The notes beneath the pieces are model-generated. The model ran no database searches and had not been told where the DNA came from. It saw only the letters and a program-made list of their open reading frames with translations. A DNA stretch of 54,901 nt, counting the filler, from Sluysia triapertura (taxonomy: Eukaryota), in NCBI GenBank assembly GCA_046118255.1. It is 4 parts of 4 records of this genome, joined end to end, with 100 filler letters (N's around TTAATTAATTAA, not from the genome) between each part and the next. Parts side by side here need not be neighbours in the genome. Positions count along the whole stretch, not along the records: positions 26,547 to 39,758 come from JBJNIA010052887.1; 3 more parts are not named here. One strand, given 5' to 3'. Of this stretch, positions 21,580-53,200 are shown one piece after another. Every line of letters starts with the position of its first letter. Within the stretch, counting starts at the first letter, position 1. Both the position numbers and the translations under genes were made by a program.

Positions 21580-22143
21580 CGACTGGAAAGTGTTTCGAGC
21601 ATTCACATCATCAGTAACCTTTGAATGGTCTCTTAGTTTGGTGTTTGGTTATATAGTTTGATTCTATCACATTATGTTTCGGCATTTAGTCTATTACCAT
21701 TTTGTTGAACGATTATTATCTGAGATTTGGCGTACAAATAAATGTCGTAACATGAAGTAGCACACCAACAATCGCCTAATAAACAAAGCAAATGTGCTAG
21801 GTGGACGAACGAGAACTTTTGTTCAAAATCTATTATATTACTTTATTACTGAAGTTATTGAACCATCTTGGATTTACTTAGAAAACAAATATATCAAGCT
21901 TCTAATATTGATGCAGTTTTCGATGCACATAAGGAATACTTAAATTATTGTTTTCTTAATTGTAATTTAACATCATCCAATCATTTTCGGAGCTCGGAAT
22001 CATTTCTTGGAATGCGTGTGAAATTTTCTGACGAATTCGAAAATAAACTAAGCGCTAGTTTGTTTTTGGCACAAGATCAATTATTTATTACAAAATATGA
22101 AAAGTTCATTGATGAAAAAGATAAAAGATTAATAATTAATTAA
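21580..22143 (+). pseudogene. TUBGCP2: Gamma-tubulin complex component 2 (Spc97/98 family) C-terminal fragment
   Basis: EWSLSLV..Y.IMFRHL.Y.HFVERLL..IW / FVQNLLYYFITEVIEPSW / ASNIDAVFDAHKEYLNYCFLNCNLT; in-frame stops and a frameshift near 21870. Confidence 0.8.
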
Positions 22144-24592: not shown

Positions 24593-25075
24593 TAGTGGCC
24601 AACCTTGACAACCACTAAAATTTTATTAAAAACTAATATCTTTTTTCTCTTTTCATTATACTTTAACAATCATACATCTATCTCTTACATACTTTTTAAA
24701 ATCAATCTATGTCCACAATTCCACAACATCCAAATCACATTTACACCAACATTACCAAATTACATTAACTAATCCATCAAAAACATGTACTCGATATCCA
24801 CAATAATCCAACAACAAACACATTCGAGATAATCCACTTAATACTTTCGAACCCTTTATTTTACATTACACTTTAACAATTAATACTTAATATTTAACAA
24901 TATTCATTTAATAGTTTATTTGCTTAAACTAAATCACAATCACAAACTTAAAACACATAAACCACAATTACATTTATTACCATTTGACAACACCAGCAAA
25001 TCTACTTGAAACATATAAAATACCTACTTCACATCTTCGAATCAATTACAACGTTTTAAATTCACTATTCATTAA
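24593..25075 (-). repeat. G+T-skewed cassette, copy D (3' part)
   Basis: Reverse complement aligns colinearly with 2595-3039. Confidence 0.85.
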
Positions 25076-31753: not shown

Positions 31754-32092
31754 TTGGTCGTGGTGCATTTAGTGTTAAGCATTATTATTAATCTGGATGA
31801 AAATAATTTATCACATACGATAATGTACCTACACATATCACATTCTGCATCTGATATATGTATCAAGAATAATCATAAAATAAAATTTATTCCATCTTAT
31901 TCTCCACAACTTAATCCAATTGAAGATGTTTTTTAAATGAAAAAAATCATAAAATCTGTAAATTGTCAAACAGAAAATCAATTAAAATTGAAAATAATCC
32001 AATCAAGTTTGGATATCACTAGTAAAGATTGTAACTCATGTTTTAAGCATTTGCGCGAGTATTTAATAAGATCAATTGATGAGTCCTTTTAA
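31754..32092 (+). mobile_element. Tc1/IS630-family DDE transposase C-terminal relic
   Basis: IKFIPSYSPQLNPIEDVF motif and downstream helix ...DCNSCFKH; internal stop. Confidence 0.85.
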
Positions 32093-32799: not shown

Positions 32800-33470
32800 A
32801 ATATTACCATAAATTTAGTTAATATTTCATAATCTTCCAGTAATTTGATATTGTCTGGTAACTGGTTGTATATTTTTGAAACATAAACGGTATACATCCT
32901 ATCACCTAGCACGTTATCACTCTGGATTCTGTATAGATCATTGTCTCAATGAAATATTCATCTTGGTTTCCAAATTTTTTATTATTTCTAAGAGATATTC
33001 CATAATGTAGGCATTTGTAAATTATTATCATTATTTCTATTCTTGAATTCTATTCTTGCTTTTAATGGCAACCAATGTAATTCCTTAAGATAAGGTGTTA
33101 CATGAGATCTTGGAGAAGAAGAATATAATTCAGGATTTGTTGATTAGTTTAATTCAAAAATTCAAGAAAAATAAACAAAATATTCAATATTTATGATTTT
33201 ATTAGATTTATATTTTAATATATTAATTACTAAAATAATTTTAACTCTTTTAGAACCAGTGATGCGTGTTATTTTTCTTGTTTTCTTCCATTTTGAATCA
33301 AATATATCAATTAAGCACATTTTTCGTCAATTTTTTAATTAATATAACTAGATAAATCTTATTTGGATAAATGAGTCTCTTTCTCTTACAATAGATAAAT
33401 ACTATTGTCCCACAATTATCGATTCCTCAAATTGTATTTTGACATTTTCCATCACAAATAATTTTTCATA
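32800..33470 (-). mobile_element. L2/CR1-group LINE 3' fragment
   Basis: RSHVTPYLKELHWLPLKARIEFK..IIYKCLH and GDRMYTVYVSKIYNQLPDNIK. Confidence 0.8.
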
Positions 33471-33474
33471 CAAC

Positions 33475-34096
33475 TGTGAAAAATTAATGAATTTTTATAA
33501 AAGTGATTGATTATTTTTAATGAATTTCTTAATGGAAATATATATTAATATTTAATGGATTAATTGTTTTCGAGTAAATATTAATACATTAAATGAATAG
33601 AACATTATGCTTAATGGATTTTTAATGGAATGGCTGAATATAATAAAACGTACAACAAATTAAAAAACAGCGATTTAAAACGTATTATGGTTGGAAAGTT
33701 TTTTAGACATAACTATATTATATCCAATGATTGATCCGAACCGGGAGATTCTTAGTGTTACGAAGACAAATTCCTGATATTGCTCAAACCTCTTGACGAA
33801 CTAGATAAGTGTATTGTCGCTGAATTCGTTCCAGCCATTCTATTGGCTTCTGTCCTACTAGATAAATCGTAAGTTATATTTGTTAAGTTGTACCCTTAGT
33901 TTTCTACTTAGTTTAACGCTAATTTCAAAATCACTAAAAATTGTATTAATATTAAGCTAAGTCTTAATATTTTAATATCTTAATATTACTATCCTTTCGT
34001 AGTATTATTATCTTATTGTTCACAGTTTTTAAATTTTTTGCATAATTTTTATAATTATTTGTGTAATAAATATTTGTATTTACGGATTTCGTAACA
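33475..34096 (+). mobile_element. LTR-like segment
   Basis: T-rich tract with AATAAA ending TTCGTAACA (34088-34096), the exact inverse of TGTTACGAA at 33756. True 5' end uncertain. Confidence 0.4.
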
Positions 34097-34794
34097 GTAA
34101 TCACGAATAGTCATAAAGTAATACAAATTAATAAGACATCCAGCAACCAAATTGGCACAACTTATAAAAATAACTTTAAAAGCTATAGAAAAGTACTTCA
34201 TCAACTGTACATACACTGATAATAAAACAAATAACTGTACACATACATCAGTAAATTTTCATTAAACATAACAAACCCTTGATTTATAAAATCTTATAGT
34301 TTAAGCTAGCAATAAAATCTCTTAAAATTTAATACTTTTAAGCAAGAGAGGATCAAAAGTCTTCTATTGTTACTGCAAGTGTTCTGTCTTAAGAGAAACC
34401 TACTTAGTAAAATTGTTAACGTCTGGAAGAGAGTTAGGTTAGATAGAGACGATTTATGTCACTAGCTGACGACGGTCTAATTAGACTTATAACCAACGTA
34501 AAGAAATTAACTGCAAAAGATAACCTCAGCGAAATCAACTGGTAGCAATGTATAATCGGATTTTAATTTTATCTGTAGGTTAGGACAACCTTTTTACGGT
34601 CTGTCGAATGTTCAAATATTTTAAAGGTGAAATCAGCCTTTTTACGGTCTGATTATAATCAAAAAACGAAGAACTCTCAAATATAAGAGTATATTAATTA
34701 CAACTTACACACACTATATAATAAAGATAAGATTTTAAATTTTAACGTTTCCCTTAGATTGAAATAATTTTAATTCGAAGGTAAGTCAGCCTTT

Positions 34795-35512
34795 TTAAGT
34801 CTTGTTCAATAGACTTAAATTCTTATCTAAATTGTCCGAATAATTTACAGCAGTAGTGGGATATGTGCTTTTTACTCTGTTCAACACAGTATTAGTAGGT
34901 ATGGCTGGTTTTGAGTAGCAGTAATATCTAATTTGTCTAAGATTTGGTACACGTAAATCGCATACTCTATATTCTGGCAAAAATCCGAGTGTATTGTGAA
35001 TTTTTTTATGAAGTAGAATCCAAACCTCGATAAAAGTAAGATTTTGTTCAAATGCAAAAAATAGATAATTATCAGTTTTAGGAAGTATTAGTGCATAATG
35101 CTGTTCTTTATCAAATAATTCATCAAAATCCTTTTTGGGTGGGTTCTTTTTGTTTACTTCATAACCAATTAGTATAGCATTTTCCGTTAACGGGTTTGTT
35201 ATTTTCACAAAGTTATTTCTTTCCCTATATAGTAACATTGGAAATTTTATAGATATTGATAAATGATCAAAAGCATAAGATTTTGTTCTAATTCTATAAT
35301 CGTGTATTGATATAATTTTTGAGTTTTGGTTTGGTTCAAATTCAATTTCTAACTCCAAAGTAATATTAAACAATTGATTACACATCCATTGCACATCATT
35401 ACCCGATGACTGGTATATTTACTAATGTCCAATCCATGTTTACACCAATTAACCAAGCGACAACTAATAGAGATATTGGTGATTTTAGGAATATTACTTT
35501 GTATATTTCCAT
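34795..35512 (-). CDS. Accessory ORF (199 aa open; possible signal peptide from ATG 35512 via frameshift)
   Basis: 600-bp stop-free frame with complex composition; the upstream frame reads MEIYKVIFLKSPISLLVVAWLIGV. Confidence 0.55.
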
Positions 35513-35600
35513 ACATAATTTTTCGACGTGATTTAAATGTAATTCATGGTCTTATTATTATTCATATTGTATGTACGCTAATTATACATGTCATACATAT

Positions 35601-35867
35601 TCATGCTATCATGACTGACTGTAAGCTTGCCACCTGCCATCCTGTTGCGTATTCGTAGATAGGGGGTGGTGGTGGTGGCTCAAGATTATTTCTGTGTGGA
35701 ACAGTATATCGATCATCGTCGTCATTATTCGGAAGTAAGCACGGATATCTACACGGATATCTGTTTGACACAAACATGATAATTACTAGTATAACAATTG
35801 ATAGAGCAATGATGAATAATATTGCAGCTAAAATTAATATTAACAATGATGGATCCGTTCTTAACAT
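35601..35867 (-). CDS. 88-aa single-pass TM protein with PPxY motif
   Basis: About 26-residue hydrophobic stretch, RYPCRYPC, DDDD, EPPPPPPIYEY. Confidence 0.7.
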   Translation of the reverse strand: MLRTDPSLLILILAAILFIIALSIVILVIIMFVSNRYPCRYPCLLPNNDDDDRYTVPHRNNLEPPPPPPIYEYATGWQVASLQSVMIA

Positions 35868-36416
35868 TTCTGATAATGACAGATATTTTCGGTTCCTTTT
35901 AGTGTAAAATGTAGTTGTTCTAATTTCGCTGGTGCTACATATATCTTAGCAATAATAAGTCGCTCTTCGTTAGGCAAGAAATCAGTACATATGGCAATAT
36001 TATTTACCAAATTATTAATATAATATTCCTTTACGTTCCAAGAACAAGTTAAGTCTATTTGGTTTCAGACACATAAATCTCACTTGAATGTCGTTCTGTA
36101 ATATTTTAACTCTTACTTCTGTGTCATAATTATGAAATTCGAGATACTCGGTTTTATAAATTTGTACATCACATTGAACCGTGGTAGTTATTAAGACTAA
36201 CATTAAAGGTATTGGTTTTTTATTAATTGCGACTACGCCTATTTTTCTACTAAAGTCAATTATATGCAATCTGACCCAAATTGCATATATTACTATAAGG
36301 ATTACTGAAATTGGAATTAGTTTATATATTAATGTGATAATGTTGGACGGTATGTCATTTGATGTACAATTGTTTAGATATTTATTCATTGTAATATTCT
36401 GCACCAAATTTTGCAC
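35861..36416 (-). CDS. Accessory membrane or secreted ORF (frameshifted near 36030)
   Basis: Hydrophobic IPISVILIVIYAIWV, second signal-like PLMLVLITTTVQC; continues in another frame KEYYINN...ICHYQKC*. Confidence 0.5.
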
Positions 36417-36561
36417 CTTTCTCGTGTTTCACTTTGTGTCCAATGCAAACAACGCGAAATCTTATTTATGTGATTAATAGTGGGTCTAGATAAATACAAT
36501 ATATATCAAGTTTATGCCGTAAAACATTTTCTTTGAGCTAAATTTTATCTCCCAATATTCA

Positions 36562-37300
36562 TTATAAATATTCGTGACTGATATTTTTGTTCTTTTCCGT
36601 TATTAATTGCAGCATATAAATTCCTATACTTTCATCCTCATCAATATCTATGAATTTGACGAAATTAATCATTACCACTAATAGTATCATCCACCATGAC
36701 CTCTTATGATTATTTACCCTGGTAAATGTAAGCATTACTGTATCGACAGAGCCAATTCTCGATGATGATGATTCCGAAAATTCACTCGTTACTGCTGACA
36801 TTGATGAGTCTGTTGATGACTCATCCCATAAAAAATCAAATAATCGAATTGGTAGAGGAACTGGATTACTAGGTTGGATTTCCGGTGTTGAAATATTAAT
36901 CGGAGCAATATTACTACTACGAGATGGAATAATAACCTGTGGAAGTATTAATTGTGCACCTTGAGGAAATTTTGTAAGACCATACATACAATGTATGACT
37001 GTGTCATCTAATTTATCGAGTGTGTCTAAGCAAATTATTAAATCAAAAGGGGATTCTTTCCAAACACAGATATATTCATTTACTCGTTTGTCTAATATAC
37101 CCAAATGTGCGTGTATTATTCCATCTATATTTATCGGTGTCCGTTGCAGGTTATAAATTATTGTTGGCGGTGGATCCAAAAATACAATTTCCCATGTGGT
37201 CAAAAAATTATAGTGTATTACTGATGTGGTTGCTCCCGTATCAATATTGCTTGGATCCATCTACCATTGAATCGTACGTTTTGGAAAATATGCGTAAGTA
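36562..37300 (-). CDS. Retropepsin-like aspartic protease + Ser-rich linker + hydrophobic segment, downstream of integrase
   Basis: VRFNGRWIQAI[L]/DTGATTSVI (DTGA at 37231-37242); FDLIICLDTL resembles DxILGxDFL; WWMILLVVMINFVKFI. Confidence 0.75.
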
Positions 37301-37329
37301 TTCCAGTTGATACATGGTACATCATTACT

Positions 37330-39282
37330 ACTTGCTTATGAACCAGCGACTGAACTGAAGATGGTGGTTTATCTCGATCTTTTGTTTTTGGTTTAACCTT
37401 TAATTTAGACTTTTTAACAGTTCTATTTCTTAACTGGTATTCATCACTTGGTACTATCTTACATCTGTTGACATGTACTATAAAAGTTTCGGAATCTAGT
37501 TTGGTTGTATCTTTAACAAATAAATTGGTATCGGTGATTTTTATTATTTCATGTGGTCCCTTAAATGGCTTATGTAACTTTGGTGATTGTCCCGTTTGGT
37601 TAATGGATATTCGATGAGTATCTTATCACCAATCTGAAAATTGTGCTCTTTAGCTTTCTTGTCGTATGCATCCTTATGTGCTTCTTGTGAAAATTTTATT
37701 TGTAAACCAGCACGTTTCCAAGCATCTTGTAGTCTTTCGTGCATTATTCTTACGTATTCAGGCGTTTCCATATATTGAGATGTAGGTAGTATCCATTCTA
37801 AGTCCACTGGCATATTTGAGTGACGTCTGTACATTAAATAAAATGGAGTAAAATTTATTGCTTGATGCACCGATGCGAATAAACACGGTGAAATATATAA
37901 GTCCCAGTCTGTTTGCATATCATTTACGTTTGATTGAAGCATATTTATCAATGTTCGATTAAACCGTTCAACTAGTCCATCCGTCTGCGAATGATAAGGT
38001 GATGTGTAAATTCTTAAAATGTCGAATATTTTTGCCACTGATTTAATTACATCACTAGTAAAATTTGTACCCTGATCTGTAAGTAACTTTCGTGGCGTAC
38101 CATATCTGTATATTATTTTTTCTACAAGTATCTGTGAGACAGTTTCTTCCCTTTGATTCTCATTGGGTACGCCTCAGGCCATTTAGTTAAGTAGTCGGCA
38201 AATACAATAATATATTATTTCCATTAAAAGTTTCTGGTAGTGGTCCCACCATATCCATTGCTGTAAAGTCCATGGGTGATAATGAAACTGGCATTGGTTT
38301 AAGTGGTACTTTTGTCCGAGTTCCAGTATTTTTCCTTCTACAACAGAATGAACTATCTTTACACCATTTTCTAATGTCTTCTTCCGTGCTTTCCCAATAA
38401 TATTTATCTTTTATGCGTGATAATGTTTTTCTTAAAGACAGATATCCACCTAATTGACCATCATGAAATTGTATTAGAATTGGTGTTATCAGTGATTTAG
38501 GGACTATGGTTTTCCAGTCTTCTTTTGAATCTCTAAATCGAAGAATTCCGTCCGTAATGGCTAATCTCTTTGCCTGATTTTCGATTAGTGTCCCTTTCGC
38601 TAATGAATCAATAATACATGAAATTTATTCATCTTCCCTTAGATGTTTGATAATTTCCTTAGGGTTTTGCAACTTGCTTGATATTGCCATAATTTTTATT
38701 AAATTAATATTTGCTTTATCATTTACGTTTGTCGGTCGTGACATACAGTCAGCGCCATTGCTTTGTGAACCTGGTTTGTAGATAACTTTTAAGTCAAATT
38801 CAGATAGTTTGTTGAACCATCTATTTAGTCTGCTCACTTCATCTCTATGGTTGTACAAGTAGGTTAGTGGTTTGTGACCTGTATATAAATAAACTTTTTG
38901 CCCTAACAGATAATGTCTAAATAACTTGCATGCGTATACTCTTGCTAAACACTCCTCTTCTATTGCAGAATAGTTCATTTCAGTTTTATTCAGTCTTCGA
39001 CTAGCATATGCGATTACCGCTTCTAAATTGTTCATATCCTTTTGTCCCAAAATTGCTCCTATGGCATAGTTAGTGGCATCTGTGGTGATTATAAATGGTT
39101 TATTGACATCTGGAAATATTAATATTGGTGTCGTGGTTAGCCGTTTTTTTTAATTTTTTAAAGGCTTTTGTTTGTTCTTCTGTCCATCTAAATTCCACAT
39201 CTTTCTTTGTTAATTTTCTGAGGGGCTGGGCTATCTTAGCAAAATTTTTAACAAAACTTCTATAATAATTAGCTAAGACTAA
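37330..39282 (-). pseudogene. pol: pol: RT connection, RNase H, integrase with GPY/F module
   Basis: LANYYRSFVKNFAKIAQPL; TDATNYAIGAILGQ; YSAIEEECLA; MDMVGPLP; LLTDQGTNFTS; PYHSQTDGLVERFNRTL; KLHKPFKGPHEI; several frameshifts. Confidence 0.95.
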
Positions 39283-39858: not shown

Positions 39859-40011
39859 TATTTCGAATTTTATTCGAGTTTCGAATAATCGTTCTACATT
39901 TTTTCATGAACAATTTTTTATCGATCGCTTTTTACTTTCTTATAATTTATAAGTCTAAAACGTTATATTAATAAAACCATGAATAATTAATTAAAATTTT
40001 GATTGAAATAG

Positions 40012-40204
40012 AAATTTAATGCTGCTGTCGAAGGCAGAAGAAGATGGCTTGGAATGCTTTAAATTTAATTTTACATTGACTCAGAATTCATTTGGCAAAC
40101 TTCACAAATACGAAATAATCCGAGGTGGACAAAACATTCCTGTTACTATGGAGAATAAAGGAGAATATATTTACGGTGTCGTAGAACTCATTCTTTATAA
40201 ACAG
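40012..40204 (+). CDS. Isolated HECT E3 ubiquitin-ligase exon
   Basis: FTLTQNSFGKLHKYEIIRGGQNIPVTMENKGEYI; flanked by ...aaatag| and |gtaact. Other exons not seen. Confidence 0.7.
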
Positions 40205-40259
40205 GTAACTGTAAGATGATTTTATAATTTAATATAAATATATTTTATAATGGAAAATA

Positions 40260-44207: not shown

Positions 44208-44450
44208 TCAAAATTCAATTATTAACTTTCCATCATAAATTGCATCTACTTTTCTGATCATTTCTTCCACTTCAGTAACTGATCGATTTTGTAACATTTT
44301 TATTGCTGAAGTTGATTCGTGGATCTCAATATATCGACTTTTATCTTTATCAAACCTTTTAAATGCTTTTCGTAGTTCTTCATATTCTTCATGAGAATTA
44401 TAAAATTCTTTTCGCCCTTGTTTGTTCGATTTCGTTGACTTTTTGAACAT
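44208..44450 (-). CDS. Calmodulin-like EF-hand pair (80 aa), probably degenerate
   Basis: EELRKAFKRFDKDKSRYIEIHE and EVEEMIRKVDAIYDGKLIIEF. Confidence 0.75.
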   Translation of the reverse strand: MFKKSTKSNKQGRKEFYNSHEEYEELRKAFKRFDKDKSRYIEIHESTSAIKMLQNRSVTEVEEMIRKVDAIYDGKLIIEF

Positions 44451-44730
44451 TTTATAATACTAAATGGCAGTAAAATATGAAAACAAACGTGTATTTTAGT
44501 TTCTTTTAAATTTGTTCAAATATTAACTATGGATAATATTATGATTAACTAAAATGACTAAAAATACCTTTTTATAAAATCTAAAATTTCTCTATATTTT
44601 TCTTAACACCTTTTAGCACAAAAGCTGTCTGAATTTATTGAGTAATTATCTATATTGAATTTTTATTTGTCAGCTATTTTTGTTCACTTTATTTTTAACA
44701 TTTATATATTGAAAAGAACCTCAGGCAATG

Positions 44731-50269: not shown

Positions 50270-53200
50270 ACATGCCTGGGCAAATGTTCTCTAGACAAAA
50301 GTTAACATATATGATATTTTTGCGCACTTAAACCATAAATAATCCGAGTGAGAATGGTTTGTCAGAGGGTTACTTTTCATATGGCAAGACATGTACGTGT
50401 TTTCCAAATATGGCTGTTGGAAAGATTGATCAGCTCATGTAGATATTTCCACACTTTATCATTATGAAACCTACTGGTGTCGGATTAAATGGACAATTTA
50501 ATTTGATCATCCTTGAGAATGGAATTCTAATTTTACACTACCAGGTTTGTAATCATGCAGTCTTATCAACTTGACATCAATTTAACCAATATAGTGAATG
50601 AGTTACTCAGTTACCTGCTTTAGGTGATTCTCTGAAACCATCATAATTACGGAATGCGCAGACTACATTTTGACAAATATAGTCATCTTAAGCATAAATC
50701 ACACTAAGATCTCCATGATTTTTATGAGCATAAAAGAAACAATTATTAAGGGGAAACTGTTTCGAGCCCAGAAATAATTTGAAGATCTTGTGGATTATTT
50801 CGTTATAACCTACCGATTTGGAGAGATTCCTGGATTGTTTGCTATGAGGACTAGTGAAAGTTTGAGTATTGATATTGAGGCTACGTGAGTGTAAGAAGTT
50901 TCCATATATAAGAAAATTACTTTGGCAAGTGAGACTGCACGTCTGAATCTTGCGGGCATATTCAAGATTTTTCTGCAAAAGTTTCTGAAAACTTTGTTTC
51001 TTCAGTTCGCCAAATGGGATCCCTAAGTAAATCATATTAGTATCATTGTATTGTTAATGCTAAAGCAAAGTTAACTTTCAGTGATGTAGTAGAAGCATTT
51101 AGTTGGGAGGAAAATAAATTTTGATGACTTAGCTTGCTCAACAACACGATTTATGACCTGTTGTAGTTGTTCGTGTGATGTGTGGATTAGGACAATGTCA
51201 TCTTCATAAATGAGATATTACGGAAATGAAATGCCATTAATCAAGAAGTCGTCCTTTGGGGGAAGGAATGAAATAAAAAGACAATGGAAATACAAAATAG
51301 TGTCACTGACAATGGAAACTAGTGGTACTGTCATCACAAATGTTCTTAAGGAGGTTGATGGAGACCCAGTGAAGAAAGTGTTTGGAAGATGAGCCGGTGA
51401 GGCACAGACCCAAAAGCGTTGGCACTTTCAAGAAATACGGTATAAAGTTTCTTCTGCACTGTCTTCTTATGGTTCAAAGAAGCAATAATATCCTGAAGAC
51501 TGTACAGCAAGAAATTATGTTCAGTTTAGCCACCAGAGCTAAGAAGTGAATCCAAGATAAAAGGCGATCATTGGCAAATATTCTATATGTGGAATAAAGG
51601 ATCGCAATTTCTCGCCACGAGCTCAACTTCATGAACGGCGTGGAATTTGCTCCGTTAATGATAAGAAGAGTGGTAAATGCTTTCCAAGGCTTTGTTATAT
51701 TTTGTATACGCAATATTTTATTAAATAGGAAACAATGTAATTTTCCTGCAGGAACTATATCTGTGATAGTCGCAAAAGTGATGGTATTAGGACCAGGGAC
51801 ATATTTCTTACAAAATTTCATGGTCATTGCAACTTCATTTTCAGTAATGGGTTTATTCGTTGAGCATTCTATAAAGCGCGGGTGAAGAATCACTTTCGAG
51901 GCATCAAATGGAGGAAAATTCCCGTACTATAATATTGACACATATCTTATGCAGAAGCAGTAATTGGAGGAGAATCAATTCCTATCACTAAGTGAAACAA
52001 TTTCGTTTAATTCTCATCGGAGATTTATCGAGATCGTGATTGTCCGGAGGCTTCAAGGATTGGGATTGCTTCATCTGTGCTAAGAAACTTTGGGGGATGA
52101 AGTCTTAGAATTAGATCGCAGAAATCAGAAAGTGCCTCATATATGGACAAATTCGCAACACTGATTAGGGAATTTCATAAGGATTGTAGCGATGGATGAG
52201 GATGTTTACTATTATTGCCCTCCACGGATTGGGTCACAACATTATAGAAGATCTCAAGCTTGGCACCAATGTATGGGATAATAAAAATAATAATATCTGG
52301 ATTGCAATTGTACTGAAACGCAATATTGCAGATAAAAGGACCGCAGTCAATTGGTCCTGCTGAGTAGGATAAGGAATGGCGCGGCGTTGATATCCCTGCG
52401 CTTTAGGATAAATTCGCAGAATGGTATAGTCAAGCATAATCTTACCAATGTAGTCACCTAAGAGAAACCGGTTTCGTGAATACAGATCAAGTGAGTTAAT
52501 AATTTTATAGGAATTAGAATCCCGATTAAAAATGATCAAAATCAAATGACATTTTATATTTGTGATGCAAGAGAAGTAAAGCCAGTTTGAGCATTTACAG
52601 AGGGAGAAATTGTTCAGAAAGGCTTGAGCATCGCCAAACCGAACAAAATTATTTGTGATGCAAACAACAACTACTGAATCGGAGTCAGAAATATAAGCAG
52701 TGAGAGGAAGTGAATTTGACTCATTAACTAAGTCAAGATCTATCGCTGTAGGAACAATGGATACACTATCAACACGTGTTGGGTGAGTTCTGCGTGACTA
52801 TCAAATACCATCGAGCACGAACATTTCGTTGTTATTGGAATACCAGTGGTATTGTGCTTTCGGCTTAGATGTCGCCGCAAGCTAGTCCCATCATTAGTGT
52901 TAAGTTTTGTTTTATGTCACAAGCAACACATTTTACCTGGTCTGGGGAAGTTACAGTTTTTCAGGAATAACTGGCAAGGTACTTCCCTTTTTACCCGAAG
53001 CATTCAGTATATTTATCTAATCAATATGAAATGTAATGCATTCCACCCAATGTTGGATTGATCCACAAATGAATTTAAACCAGAGATCACTAAGCGCAAC
53101 GGTGAGCTGGTGTTTGCTGCTAAAGTGTTTTTGATTTACCTATTATTAGTAGGATTTTTAATTATTAGGGATTTCGTTGTGCTTTTATTACGAGCACATT

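Follow-up and report, generated by a model that had tools for sequence, protein, structure and literature searches.

Our analysis implies that the four small open reading frames (ORFs A to D) lying behind the integrase of a decayed Ty3/Gypsy element of Sluysia triapertura (assembly GCA_046118255.1) probably represent fragments of a single long protein tail that has broken up, and not a set of four small genes. The window, i.e. the whole stretch of DNA that was analysed, has 54,901 nucleotides with filler included; the element lies in the part taken from record JBJNIA010052887.1. The reading that we favour, with some reserve, is that the Pol frame once ran past the integrase into a second protease and from there into two units, each made of a signal, an ectodomain and a transmembrane (TM) segment, the second of which ended in the PPxY-bearing tail of ORF C, while ORF D was separate. 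The position and the hydrophobic pattern of such a tail in related elements are matched by the segment in the window.

A decayed copy of a Gypsy element

The stretch is a 5'-truncated, decayed copy of a multi-copy Ty3/Gypsy element. Its domains are of Gypsy type and follow each other in the order reverse transcriptase (RT), RNase H and integrase; the RNase H/integrase part matches PF17917 in Pfam (E 1.9e-23), and ORFs A to D sit 3' of it. The likeness to pol, as traced by tblastn with intact relatives, ends at 39282, inside the RT, and is followed by AT-rich sequence and an AAT array. Because the likeness stops above 39282, this copy has neither gag nor the main protease, and it lacks most of the RT. 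The same comparison revealed six breaks in 2037 nt of pol: five frame changes and one stop (Table 1). At this rate 4.8 breaks would be expected between the protease and the stop of ORF C (the probability of none being 0.008) and 7.2 down to the stop of ORF D, and the sizes of the pieces A to D agree with the decay rate of the copy. Since the copy is decayed, ORF boundaries read from it cannot serve as gene boundaries.

Throughout its length the stretch is part of a repeat family. Public run X1 contains it (5,482 records were aligned, most of them less than 95% alike), and the summed depth in X1 ranges from 182 to 98,000 across all bins between 34305 and 39300, whereas a unique X1 contig equals the flank 33300-34329 with zero differences at a depth of 20. 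X1 contig 5, which comes from another copy (37091-37452, 35 differences), bridges the junction of integrase and protease, and another X1 contig covers ORF C and 120 nt beyond. Because no contig spans the entire cassette, the linkage of ORFs B to D to pol rests on the unbroken repeat depth; a drop in summed depth at three gaps (A/B, C/D and D/3'-end) was left unused as evidence, since contig depth cannot rank the parts. Among the matches listed (12 of 67), other X1 copies differ in length at the pol breaks 39147, 37593 and 37245-37247, and also at 36583 and 36520 (A/B gap) and at 35381 (start of ORF D). The 40 substitutions listed against the X1 copies occur in this copy only and did not enter the dN/dS estimates.

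Intact relatives and their upstream Env

The integrase search returned 11 proteins with 53-62% identity (E <= 2e-63, the next match outside being 1e-38) and 19 loci with 48-58% identity from three metagenome assemblies and two contigs of metagenome-assembled genomes. In a quick tree of 76 rows the integrase of the window and its relatives form a clade of 27 rows with an SH-aLRT of 99. Two of the contigs, L081 and L082, are filed in bacterial metagenome-assembled genomes (one named Turicibacter); they are eukaryotic retroelement DNA, probably a binning contamination.

Each of the four longest relatives (L005, L008, L011 and P0121) consists of one uninterrupted ORF, 3184-3735 aa in length. All four carry the fusion glycoprotein PF24664 (E <= 1e-83) in the same ORF, upstream of the protease, the RT, the RNase H and the integrase, and three of them have zinc knuckles. 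The intact order shown by the clade is Gag-Env (gB type)-protease-RT-RNase H-integrase-(second protease)-(ankyrin)-signal-(mostly one to three fibronectin type III, FN3, domains)-stalk-TM-tail, followed by separate accessory ORFs. Because Env lies upstream of the protease in four out of four long relatives, the env of this element would belong to the part that was lost here. The initial annotation had placed the small frames where env would be; this is unsupported, because the env of the clade, of gB type and in frame in each of the four relatives that are long enough, sits between gag and protease, in the part missing from the copy. Its view that the segment is something other than an ordinary env agrees with our results: there is no fusion-glycoprotein homology behind the integrase, and the Env proteins of the relatives found no tblastn match in the window. 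As had been supposed, the segment is also part of the element family (the repeat depth is unbroken), its encoded sequence resembles that of membrane proteins, and the lineage is a retrovirus-like element of the complex kind whose accessory ORFs, as seen in the relatives, are real.

A second protease behind the integrase

The N-terminal half of ORF A is predicted to be a second retropepsin-like protease. A profile built from 7 post-integrase protease domains of 6 relatives matches the first 80 residues of ORF A with 25.4 bits (iE 4.6e-7), the next score among 732 chunks of the window being 5.8 bits. Positions 9-25 of this profile match 37292-37242 in the integrase frame with 5.3 bits, which is weak alone. 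Judged by its D[ST]G motif together with the match to the clade profile, the domain falls among the retropepsins (A2); Pfam gave no protease match on the truncated frame of ORF A. Because of the profile match, and because the first strands of the protease lie upstream in the integrase frame, ORF A is a domain fused to Pol and not a gene, and its ATG is likely no start. A retropepsin directly behind the integrase occurs in six distinct relatives, two of which (L001 and L002) add ankyrin repeats. A search with ORF A gave 0 matches in 1.84 billion representatives and none in viral contigs, and the best PDB match had E 3.3. A single origin of the post-integrase protease was considered and is unsupported, as the quick tree has 4 changes, at least 3 of them forced. 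In one relative, P0001, a C2H2-like stretch lies between two proteases behind the integrase, and there is no TM segment.

Predicted membrane tails of the relatives

In the relatives the frame runs on for about 140-1150 residues past the integrase. A predicted TM segment with a tail is present there in 17 of the 20 distinct relatives that reach a stop, usually after a signal-like segment; near-duplicates were counted once (L001=P0007, L003=L015, L081=P0009, P0002=P0121), and the fragments L009, L012, L014, L016, L044 and L082 as well as L081, whose contig ends early, were left out. The post-integrase TM segment was not seen in P0001, P0003 and P0004, and L007 has the membrane part in a shifted frame. 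All three relatives tested for hydropathy (L005, L008 and L011) have both a signal-like and a TM segment after the integrase.

The ectodomain mostly consists of one to three units of about 90 residues (33 units in 14 proteins). By sequence and model comparison these units are FN3 domains: Pfam fn3 was found in 5/14 rows (best E 5e-4), fibronectin was the top PDB match of the ectodomain profile (E 1.8e-5), and a model of the L005 ectodomain (pLDDT 84.8) has FNIII tandems as its best matches (Foldseek LAR FNIII E 2.5e-8; VIA Z 10.0, rmsd 2.2, 79 residues). L013 has a short Cys-rich ectodomain in place of FN3, and L004, L006, L007 and L011 did not join the FN3 profile. The P0006 ectodomain gave no usable match in the Atlas, and a homologue search with the ectodomain alignment brought back only two input proteins, which is a weak negative since the search covered 546-2000 aa. 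The membrane module is found at two places in one polyprotein in L008 and P0010, where an extra signal-FN3-TM module precedes the main protease (L008 aa ~1520-1710, after Env; P0010 aa 48-229); two of the 33 units lie there.

A C-terminus of the form [ST]-x-[VLI] is by definition the class I PDZ-binding pattern. It ends 13 of 17 distinct relatives and 0/109 other integrase matches, some of which are fragments, and PPxY is present in the tail of two relatives. The tails of the relatives are under purifying selection: pairwise dN/dS for L003/L015 is 0.31 in FN3, 0.18 in stalk, TM and tail and 0.39 in the signal, and for L001/L002 it is 0.26 in FN3 and 0.29 in the second protease, with dS near saturation.

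A separate ORF begins 66-513 nt past the polyprotein stop in 11/11 relative loci checked. Such ORFs have 110-720 aa and are mostly without hydrophobic segments, and there is no small TM protein among them. Many of the separate downstream ORFs of 440-720 aa in L001-L013 and L015 form one DEDD-exonuclease-like family, sometimes in two copies. The first DEDD motif is recognisable in 5/12 of such ORFs, PF00929 was found in 5/20 downstream ORFs scanned, and L003 and L015 have RING-finger ORFs.

The frames in the window

Four co-oriented frames are indeed present on the minus strand 3' of the integrase (Table 1). They had been described as tightly packed, a description that does not hold: 172 nt separate the stop of ORF A from the ATG of ORF B and 215 nt the stop of ORF C from the ATG of ORF D, the latter being within the 66-513 nt of the relatives. 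The Cys-containing tail assigned to ORF B lies at 36064-35861 in a different frame and is without an ATG, and the signal peptide suggested for ORF D disappears on inspection of its own frame, which has no hydrophobic N-terminus (Table 1). All three overlaps of stop and ATG exist, but those at 36562 (TAATG) and 35601-35604 (ATGA) open just 5 and 8 codons, respectively, and only the overlapping ATG of ORF C opens a long frame. Such an ATG has a chance rate of 10-16% (40/383 frame-ending stops in the window; 53/340 stop triplets in the element). The proposed coupling of four genes by termination-reinitiation is unsupported: ORF A is fused to Pol, two of the three overlaps lead nowhere and the sizes of the pieces match the decay.

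Table 1. Coordinates and properties of the features of the element copy in the window.
Feature	Position	Strand	Remarks
Pol remnant (RT end, RNase H, integrase)	37422..39282	-	Pfam, tblastn with intact relatives, integrase tree
Pol frame changes	near 39147, 38210, 38165, 37595 (37593), 37245-37247	-	
Pol stop	38625	-	
Integrase C-terminal linker to first strands of second protease	37242..37421	-	integrase frame; profile, six-relative side-by-side, X1 contig 5
Second retropepsin-like aspartic protease (predicted), N-half of ORF A	36950..37245	-	DTG kept; second conserved motif altered
ORF A	37260-36562	-	232 aa, carries IDTGA; hydrophobic stretch weak (KD19 1.79)
H1, predicted internal signal peptide	36658..36696	-	after S/P-rich linker; flank +3/-4, core 13
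ORF B	36389-36015	-	124 aa, KD19 2.43, two hydrophobic stretches
H2 (ORF B), predicted TM helix	36273..36341	-	N-out/C-in, flank -1/+2, core 23
H3 (ORF B), predicted internal signal peptide	36177..36215	-	flank +4/-1, core 13
Predicted second ectodomain	35861..36176	-	split near 36060: ORF B end + ATG-less Cys frame 36064-35861
ORF C	35601..35867	-	88 aa, KD19 3.53, PPPPPPIY, juxtamembrane Cys
ORF C TM helix (predicted)	35846-35769	-	26 residues, flank charge -1/+2
ORF C PPxY motif	35666-35655	-	
Cys-rich frame ahead of ORF D	35543-35349	-	
ORF D	35385-34795	-	196 aa, KD19 max 1.29
Repetitive 3' end, candidate long terminal repeat	34330..34794	-	depth step, bins 34104-34304 vs 34305-34505; unconfirmed

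By the established positive-inside rule the flank charges of H1, H2, H3 and the ORF C helix (+3/-4, -1/+2, +4/-1 and -1/+2) point to signal, TM, signal and TM, an alternation that fits one chain giving two type I membrane proteins. ORF C is likely the last TM segment and tail of the polyprotein; upstream of it the frame remains open for another 26 codons, which hold a stretch rich in S/T. The distance from the integrase to the stop of ORF C, about 600 codons, is inside the range of the relatives. Inside ORF C there is a 12-bp tandem duplication (35740-35762), and length is variable here among the other X1 copies.

No homologue was found for the C-terminal half of ORF A or for ORFs B, C and D, and no Pfam fusion family matched any piece. 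ORF D together with the preceding Cys-rich frame is likely a separate downstream accessory ORF, at the place where the relatives have theirs. None of 48 candidates (107-343 aa) proved to be a homologue of ORF D, which has no match to the profile of the relatives' exonuclease family and no PDB sequence match; its Atlas matches were all below 0.9, and its single-sequence model was unusable (pLDDT 36).

Weighing of the readings

Several results weigh against a two-unit tail fused to Pol. The FN3-unit profile reached at most 6.0 bits on the window segment, with frame switches allowed, while 17 controls reached up to 7.7 bits; held-out true FN3 units scored above 8 bits in 26/33 cases and below 8 bits in 7/33. 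The top FN3-profile match of the whole window (53234-53109, 11.8 bits) lies outside the element, and the second-subfamily profile gave nothing above controls. Frameshift-tolerant pairwise alignments with 21 segments of relatives produced no clear match (best z 3.8, 12 shuffles), the match of the second ectodomain to the FN3 core of the relatives was non-significant (hhalign P 0.054), and homology of the ectodomains in the window to those of the relatives is not supported by the scores. Stops are clustered in the A/B gap, in the frames tried; no length difference was seen at the junctions of ORF B with the Cys tail or of the Cys tail with ORF C (among the same 12 of 67 matches listed); two tandem membrane units behind the integrase were found in no relative; ORF C ends in VMIA and is without a class I PDZ end; and ORF D matches no downstream ORF of a relative. 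Either FN3 domains that have diverged or another kind of captured module may make up the units of the window; the clade is variable at this place.

One would argue that only the protease is fused to Pol and that small ORFs stand separately for B (with the Cys tail), for C and for D; ORF C, working like the FAST/sORF2 proteins or a late-domain egress factor, would then come from reinitiation or a subgenomic RNA as a type III membrane protein on its own. The position of the ATG of ORF C, which lies 7 residues ahead of the TM segment and shares bases with the stop of the frame before it, speaks for this, although such an overlap has the chance rate given above and the frame of ORF C is open, with a stalk-like stretch, for 26 codons upstream. 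Stops are clustered in the A/B and C/D gaps, and the clade does have separate downstream ORFs, but none of these is a small TM protein. Genes for sORF2 lie downstream of pol in 7/22 lepidopteran consensus elements in the available text of PMC11952523, yet ORF C is without the myristoylation motif, the ectodomain of about 30 residues and the polybasic patch of sORF2/FAST. ORF C alone could act at membranes; as an account of the whole segment, we hold separate ORFs to be unlikely, with about one chance in a handful.

Quite improbable is a single tail that reaches the stop of ORF D and carries three membrane units, ORF D being the last ectodomain. A Cys-rich, partly hydrophobic stretch does follow the stop of ORF C in its own frame, the length differs at 35381 in other copies, ORF D has 5 N-glycosylation sequons, and its first half took 7/21 of the best pairwise alignments, none of them clearly significant. 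Such a tail needs three in-frame stops to have arisen within 20 codons after ORF C, where pol has one per ~680 codons; moreover, ORF D has no intact TM segment, and the relatives stop after TM and tail. We regard it as very improbable that the segment stems from an ordinary env now decayed, from the nested insertion of something unrelated or from a host gene. The lack of homologues and the linkage of B-D to pol through depth alone, with no single spanning contig, leave room for it, but the relatives' Env finds nothing in the window, the contig of another copy joins integrase and protease with the repeat depth unbroken to the 3' end, and both position and hydrophobic pattern agree with the tail of the clade.

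Proposed expression and meaning

Under the favoured reading of a two-unit tail fused to Pol, internal signal sequences would thread parts of one chain into the endoplasmic reticulum (ER), for which the structural polyproteins of alphaviruses and flaviviruses are a precedent. Signal peptidase would free the lumenal N-termini of the ectodomains, and a protease, probably the second one here, would cut the integrase from the membrane-bound signal stub. The type I membrane proteins, once released, would travel to the cell surface; PPxY (NEDD4/ESCRT) or C-terminal PDZ motifs would sort them to budding sites or cell contacts, where they would serve attachment, budding or host modulation and signalling beside the upstream fusogen. 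A further step is possible but doubtful: that this lineage of invertebrate endogenous retroviruses builds a two-component surface from one polyprotein, with Gag and protease flanking a class III fusogen and, fused behind the integrase, an FN3 receptor mimic that was captured, is freed by the second protease and is led by PDZ or PPxY motifs to contacts for direct cell-to-cell spread, and that the family in the window has swapped in or doubled the unit with two different small membrane proteins.

Gypsy elements that bear an Env are usually pictured with one surface protein, whereas this clade keeps a second, selected membrane protein that is fused to Pol. A host-receptor fold with a conserved PDZ-type end points to attachment or host modulation separate from fusion in a retrotransposon. 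The tail of the clade also points to expression as an ER-threaded polyprotein and gives a handle on the role of Burro-like elements in their hosts. What looks like a "cassette" of small ORFs in a single decayed copy can turn out to be pieces of a tail of this kind.

Relation to known elements

In the literature searches no title or abstract start described an FN3 membrane protein that is fused to Pol and ends in a PDZ motif, or a protease behind the integrase; Repbase, figures and supplements could already show them. Sacco et al. in 2022 reportedly described nematode endogenous retroviruses with a continuous gag-env-pro-pol and extra ORFs. The available text of three sources already knows the gag-env-pol order, accessory domains, whether fused or free, and DEDD ORFs (PMC6431247; PMC13524379; PMC5408684).

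The giant planarian Gypsy elements Burro/GYPSM1 are described, in the text available of PMC6431247, as having a single giant ORF in which env lies in frame, with gag before it and pol behind; this env is homologous to mononegavirus fusion proteins, and there are ankyrin repeats and accessory domains either fused or in separate ORFs. The relatives resemble Burro in their PF24664 Env before the protease and in the ankyrin repeats of L001/L002. They differ in their second protease, FN3, post-integrase TM segment and PDZ tail, none of which is named for Burro in that text, and in the length of their ORFs (3.2-3.7k aa versus 4.9-5.1k in Burro). The BCL2, BIR and MATH domains of Burro proper, whose elements exceed 30 kb, had no Pfam match in the four long relatives.

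A GAG-ENV-POL order is likewise described for flatworm, nematode and bryozoan errantiviruses in the accessible part of PMC13524379, and the platyhelminth ones, with an HSV/gB-type protein (group C1a), have the gene order of our relatives. Compared by eye with rows given there, the Env of L005, L008, L011 and P0121 has a motif run and Cys spacing like six S. mediterranea rows and unlike the nematode rows. A flatworm host for the window is suggested by kinship, and the AT-rich window with its scattered exon-like matches is compatible with a triclad. In contrast to our clade, nothing after the integrase is described in that part of the text; the copy in the window has lost gag and env.

The sORF2/FAST-like proteins of MDG1-group retrotransposons are, by the available text of PMC11952523, of 63-107 aa, with a single TM segment and on the sense strand. 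ORF C, a sense-strand frame of 88 aa with a single TM segment in an LTR element, is similar to them. However, it starts with MLRTD, has a 7-residue ectodomain and no myristoylation motif, carries two Arg in the 12 residues past the TM segment and no polybasic patch, and has PPxY, and its lineage has an Env of its own. The extra ORF3s of bdelloid LTR elements encode a DEDDy exonuclease and small TM ORFs as far as the text of PMC5408684 was available, and the relatives similarly have separate DEDD-type exonuclease ORFs after pol. Here, in contrast, ORF D gave no match to that exonuclease family and a membrane protein is fused to Pol.

The 3' end and other features of the window

The initially proposed 3' long terminal repeat (LTR) could not be confirmed: the candidate has no direct-repeat partner within the window, and the pol likeness ends at 39282. 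It shows a CAGTAACA end at about 34368 and imperfect AAAAAGG repeats. No LTR pair was found in 11 relative loci either, all of which are contig fragments. Rfam gave no match.

A second decayed LTR-element 5' end lies at 8560-11830 (+), cut by an assembly gap, and possibly belongs to the same clade. It has TGGCGCCCGAA at about 8961, which we take to be a tRNA-primer-like site, a Gag at 9059-9565 similar to that of P0121 (25%, E 6e-10) and a zinc-knuckle remnant near 10100-10250. Its upstream region gave no match to the 3' end 34330-34794. The stretch 34322-34341 (-), at the 3' edge of the first element, shares 19/20 nt with 8989-9008 (+), just past the primer site of the other (E 0.008); the match is AT-rich and may be chance.

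A 523-codon open frame at 3-1571 (-), rich in N/Q/S/Y, runs off the window and has a weak Pfam match (E 0.003). Fragments of host genes or transposable elements were seen: a HECT exon (E 6e-11) at 40007-40216 (+), pieces of a gamma-tubulin complex component at 21761-22140 (+), an EF-hand exon at 44211-44459 (-) and a piece of a DDE_3 transposase at 31754-31933 (+). The broken frames at 50690-52920 (-) presumably resemble a non-LTR retroelement, from RT-like wording; they have a weak C2H2 match and no RT match in Pfam. A repeat of about 320 nt occurs in inverted copies at 2598-2915 and 24747-25071, which are 83-87% complementary. The sequence of the window is AT-rich, and exon-like matches are scattered in it.

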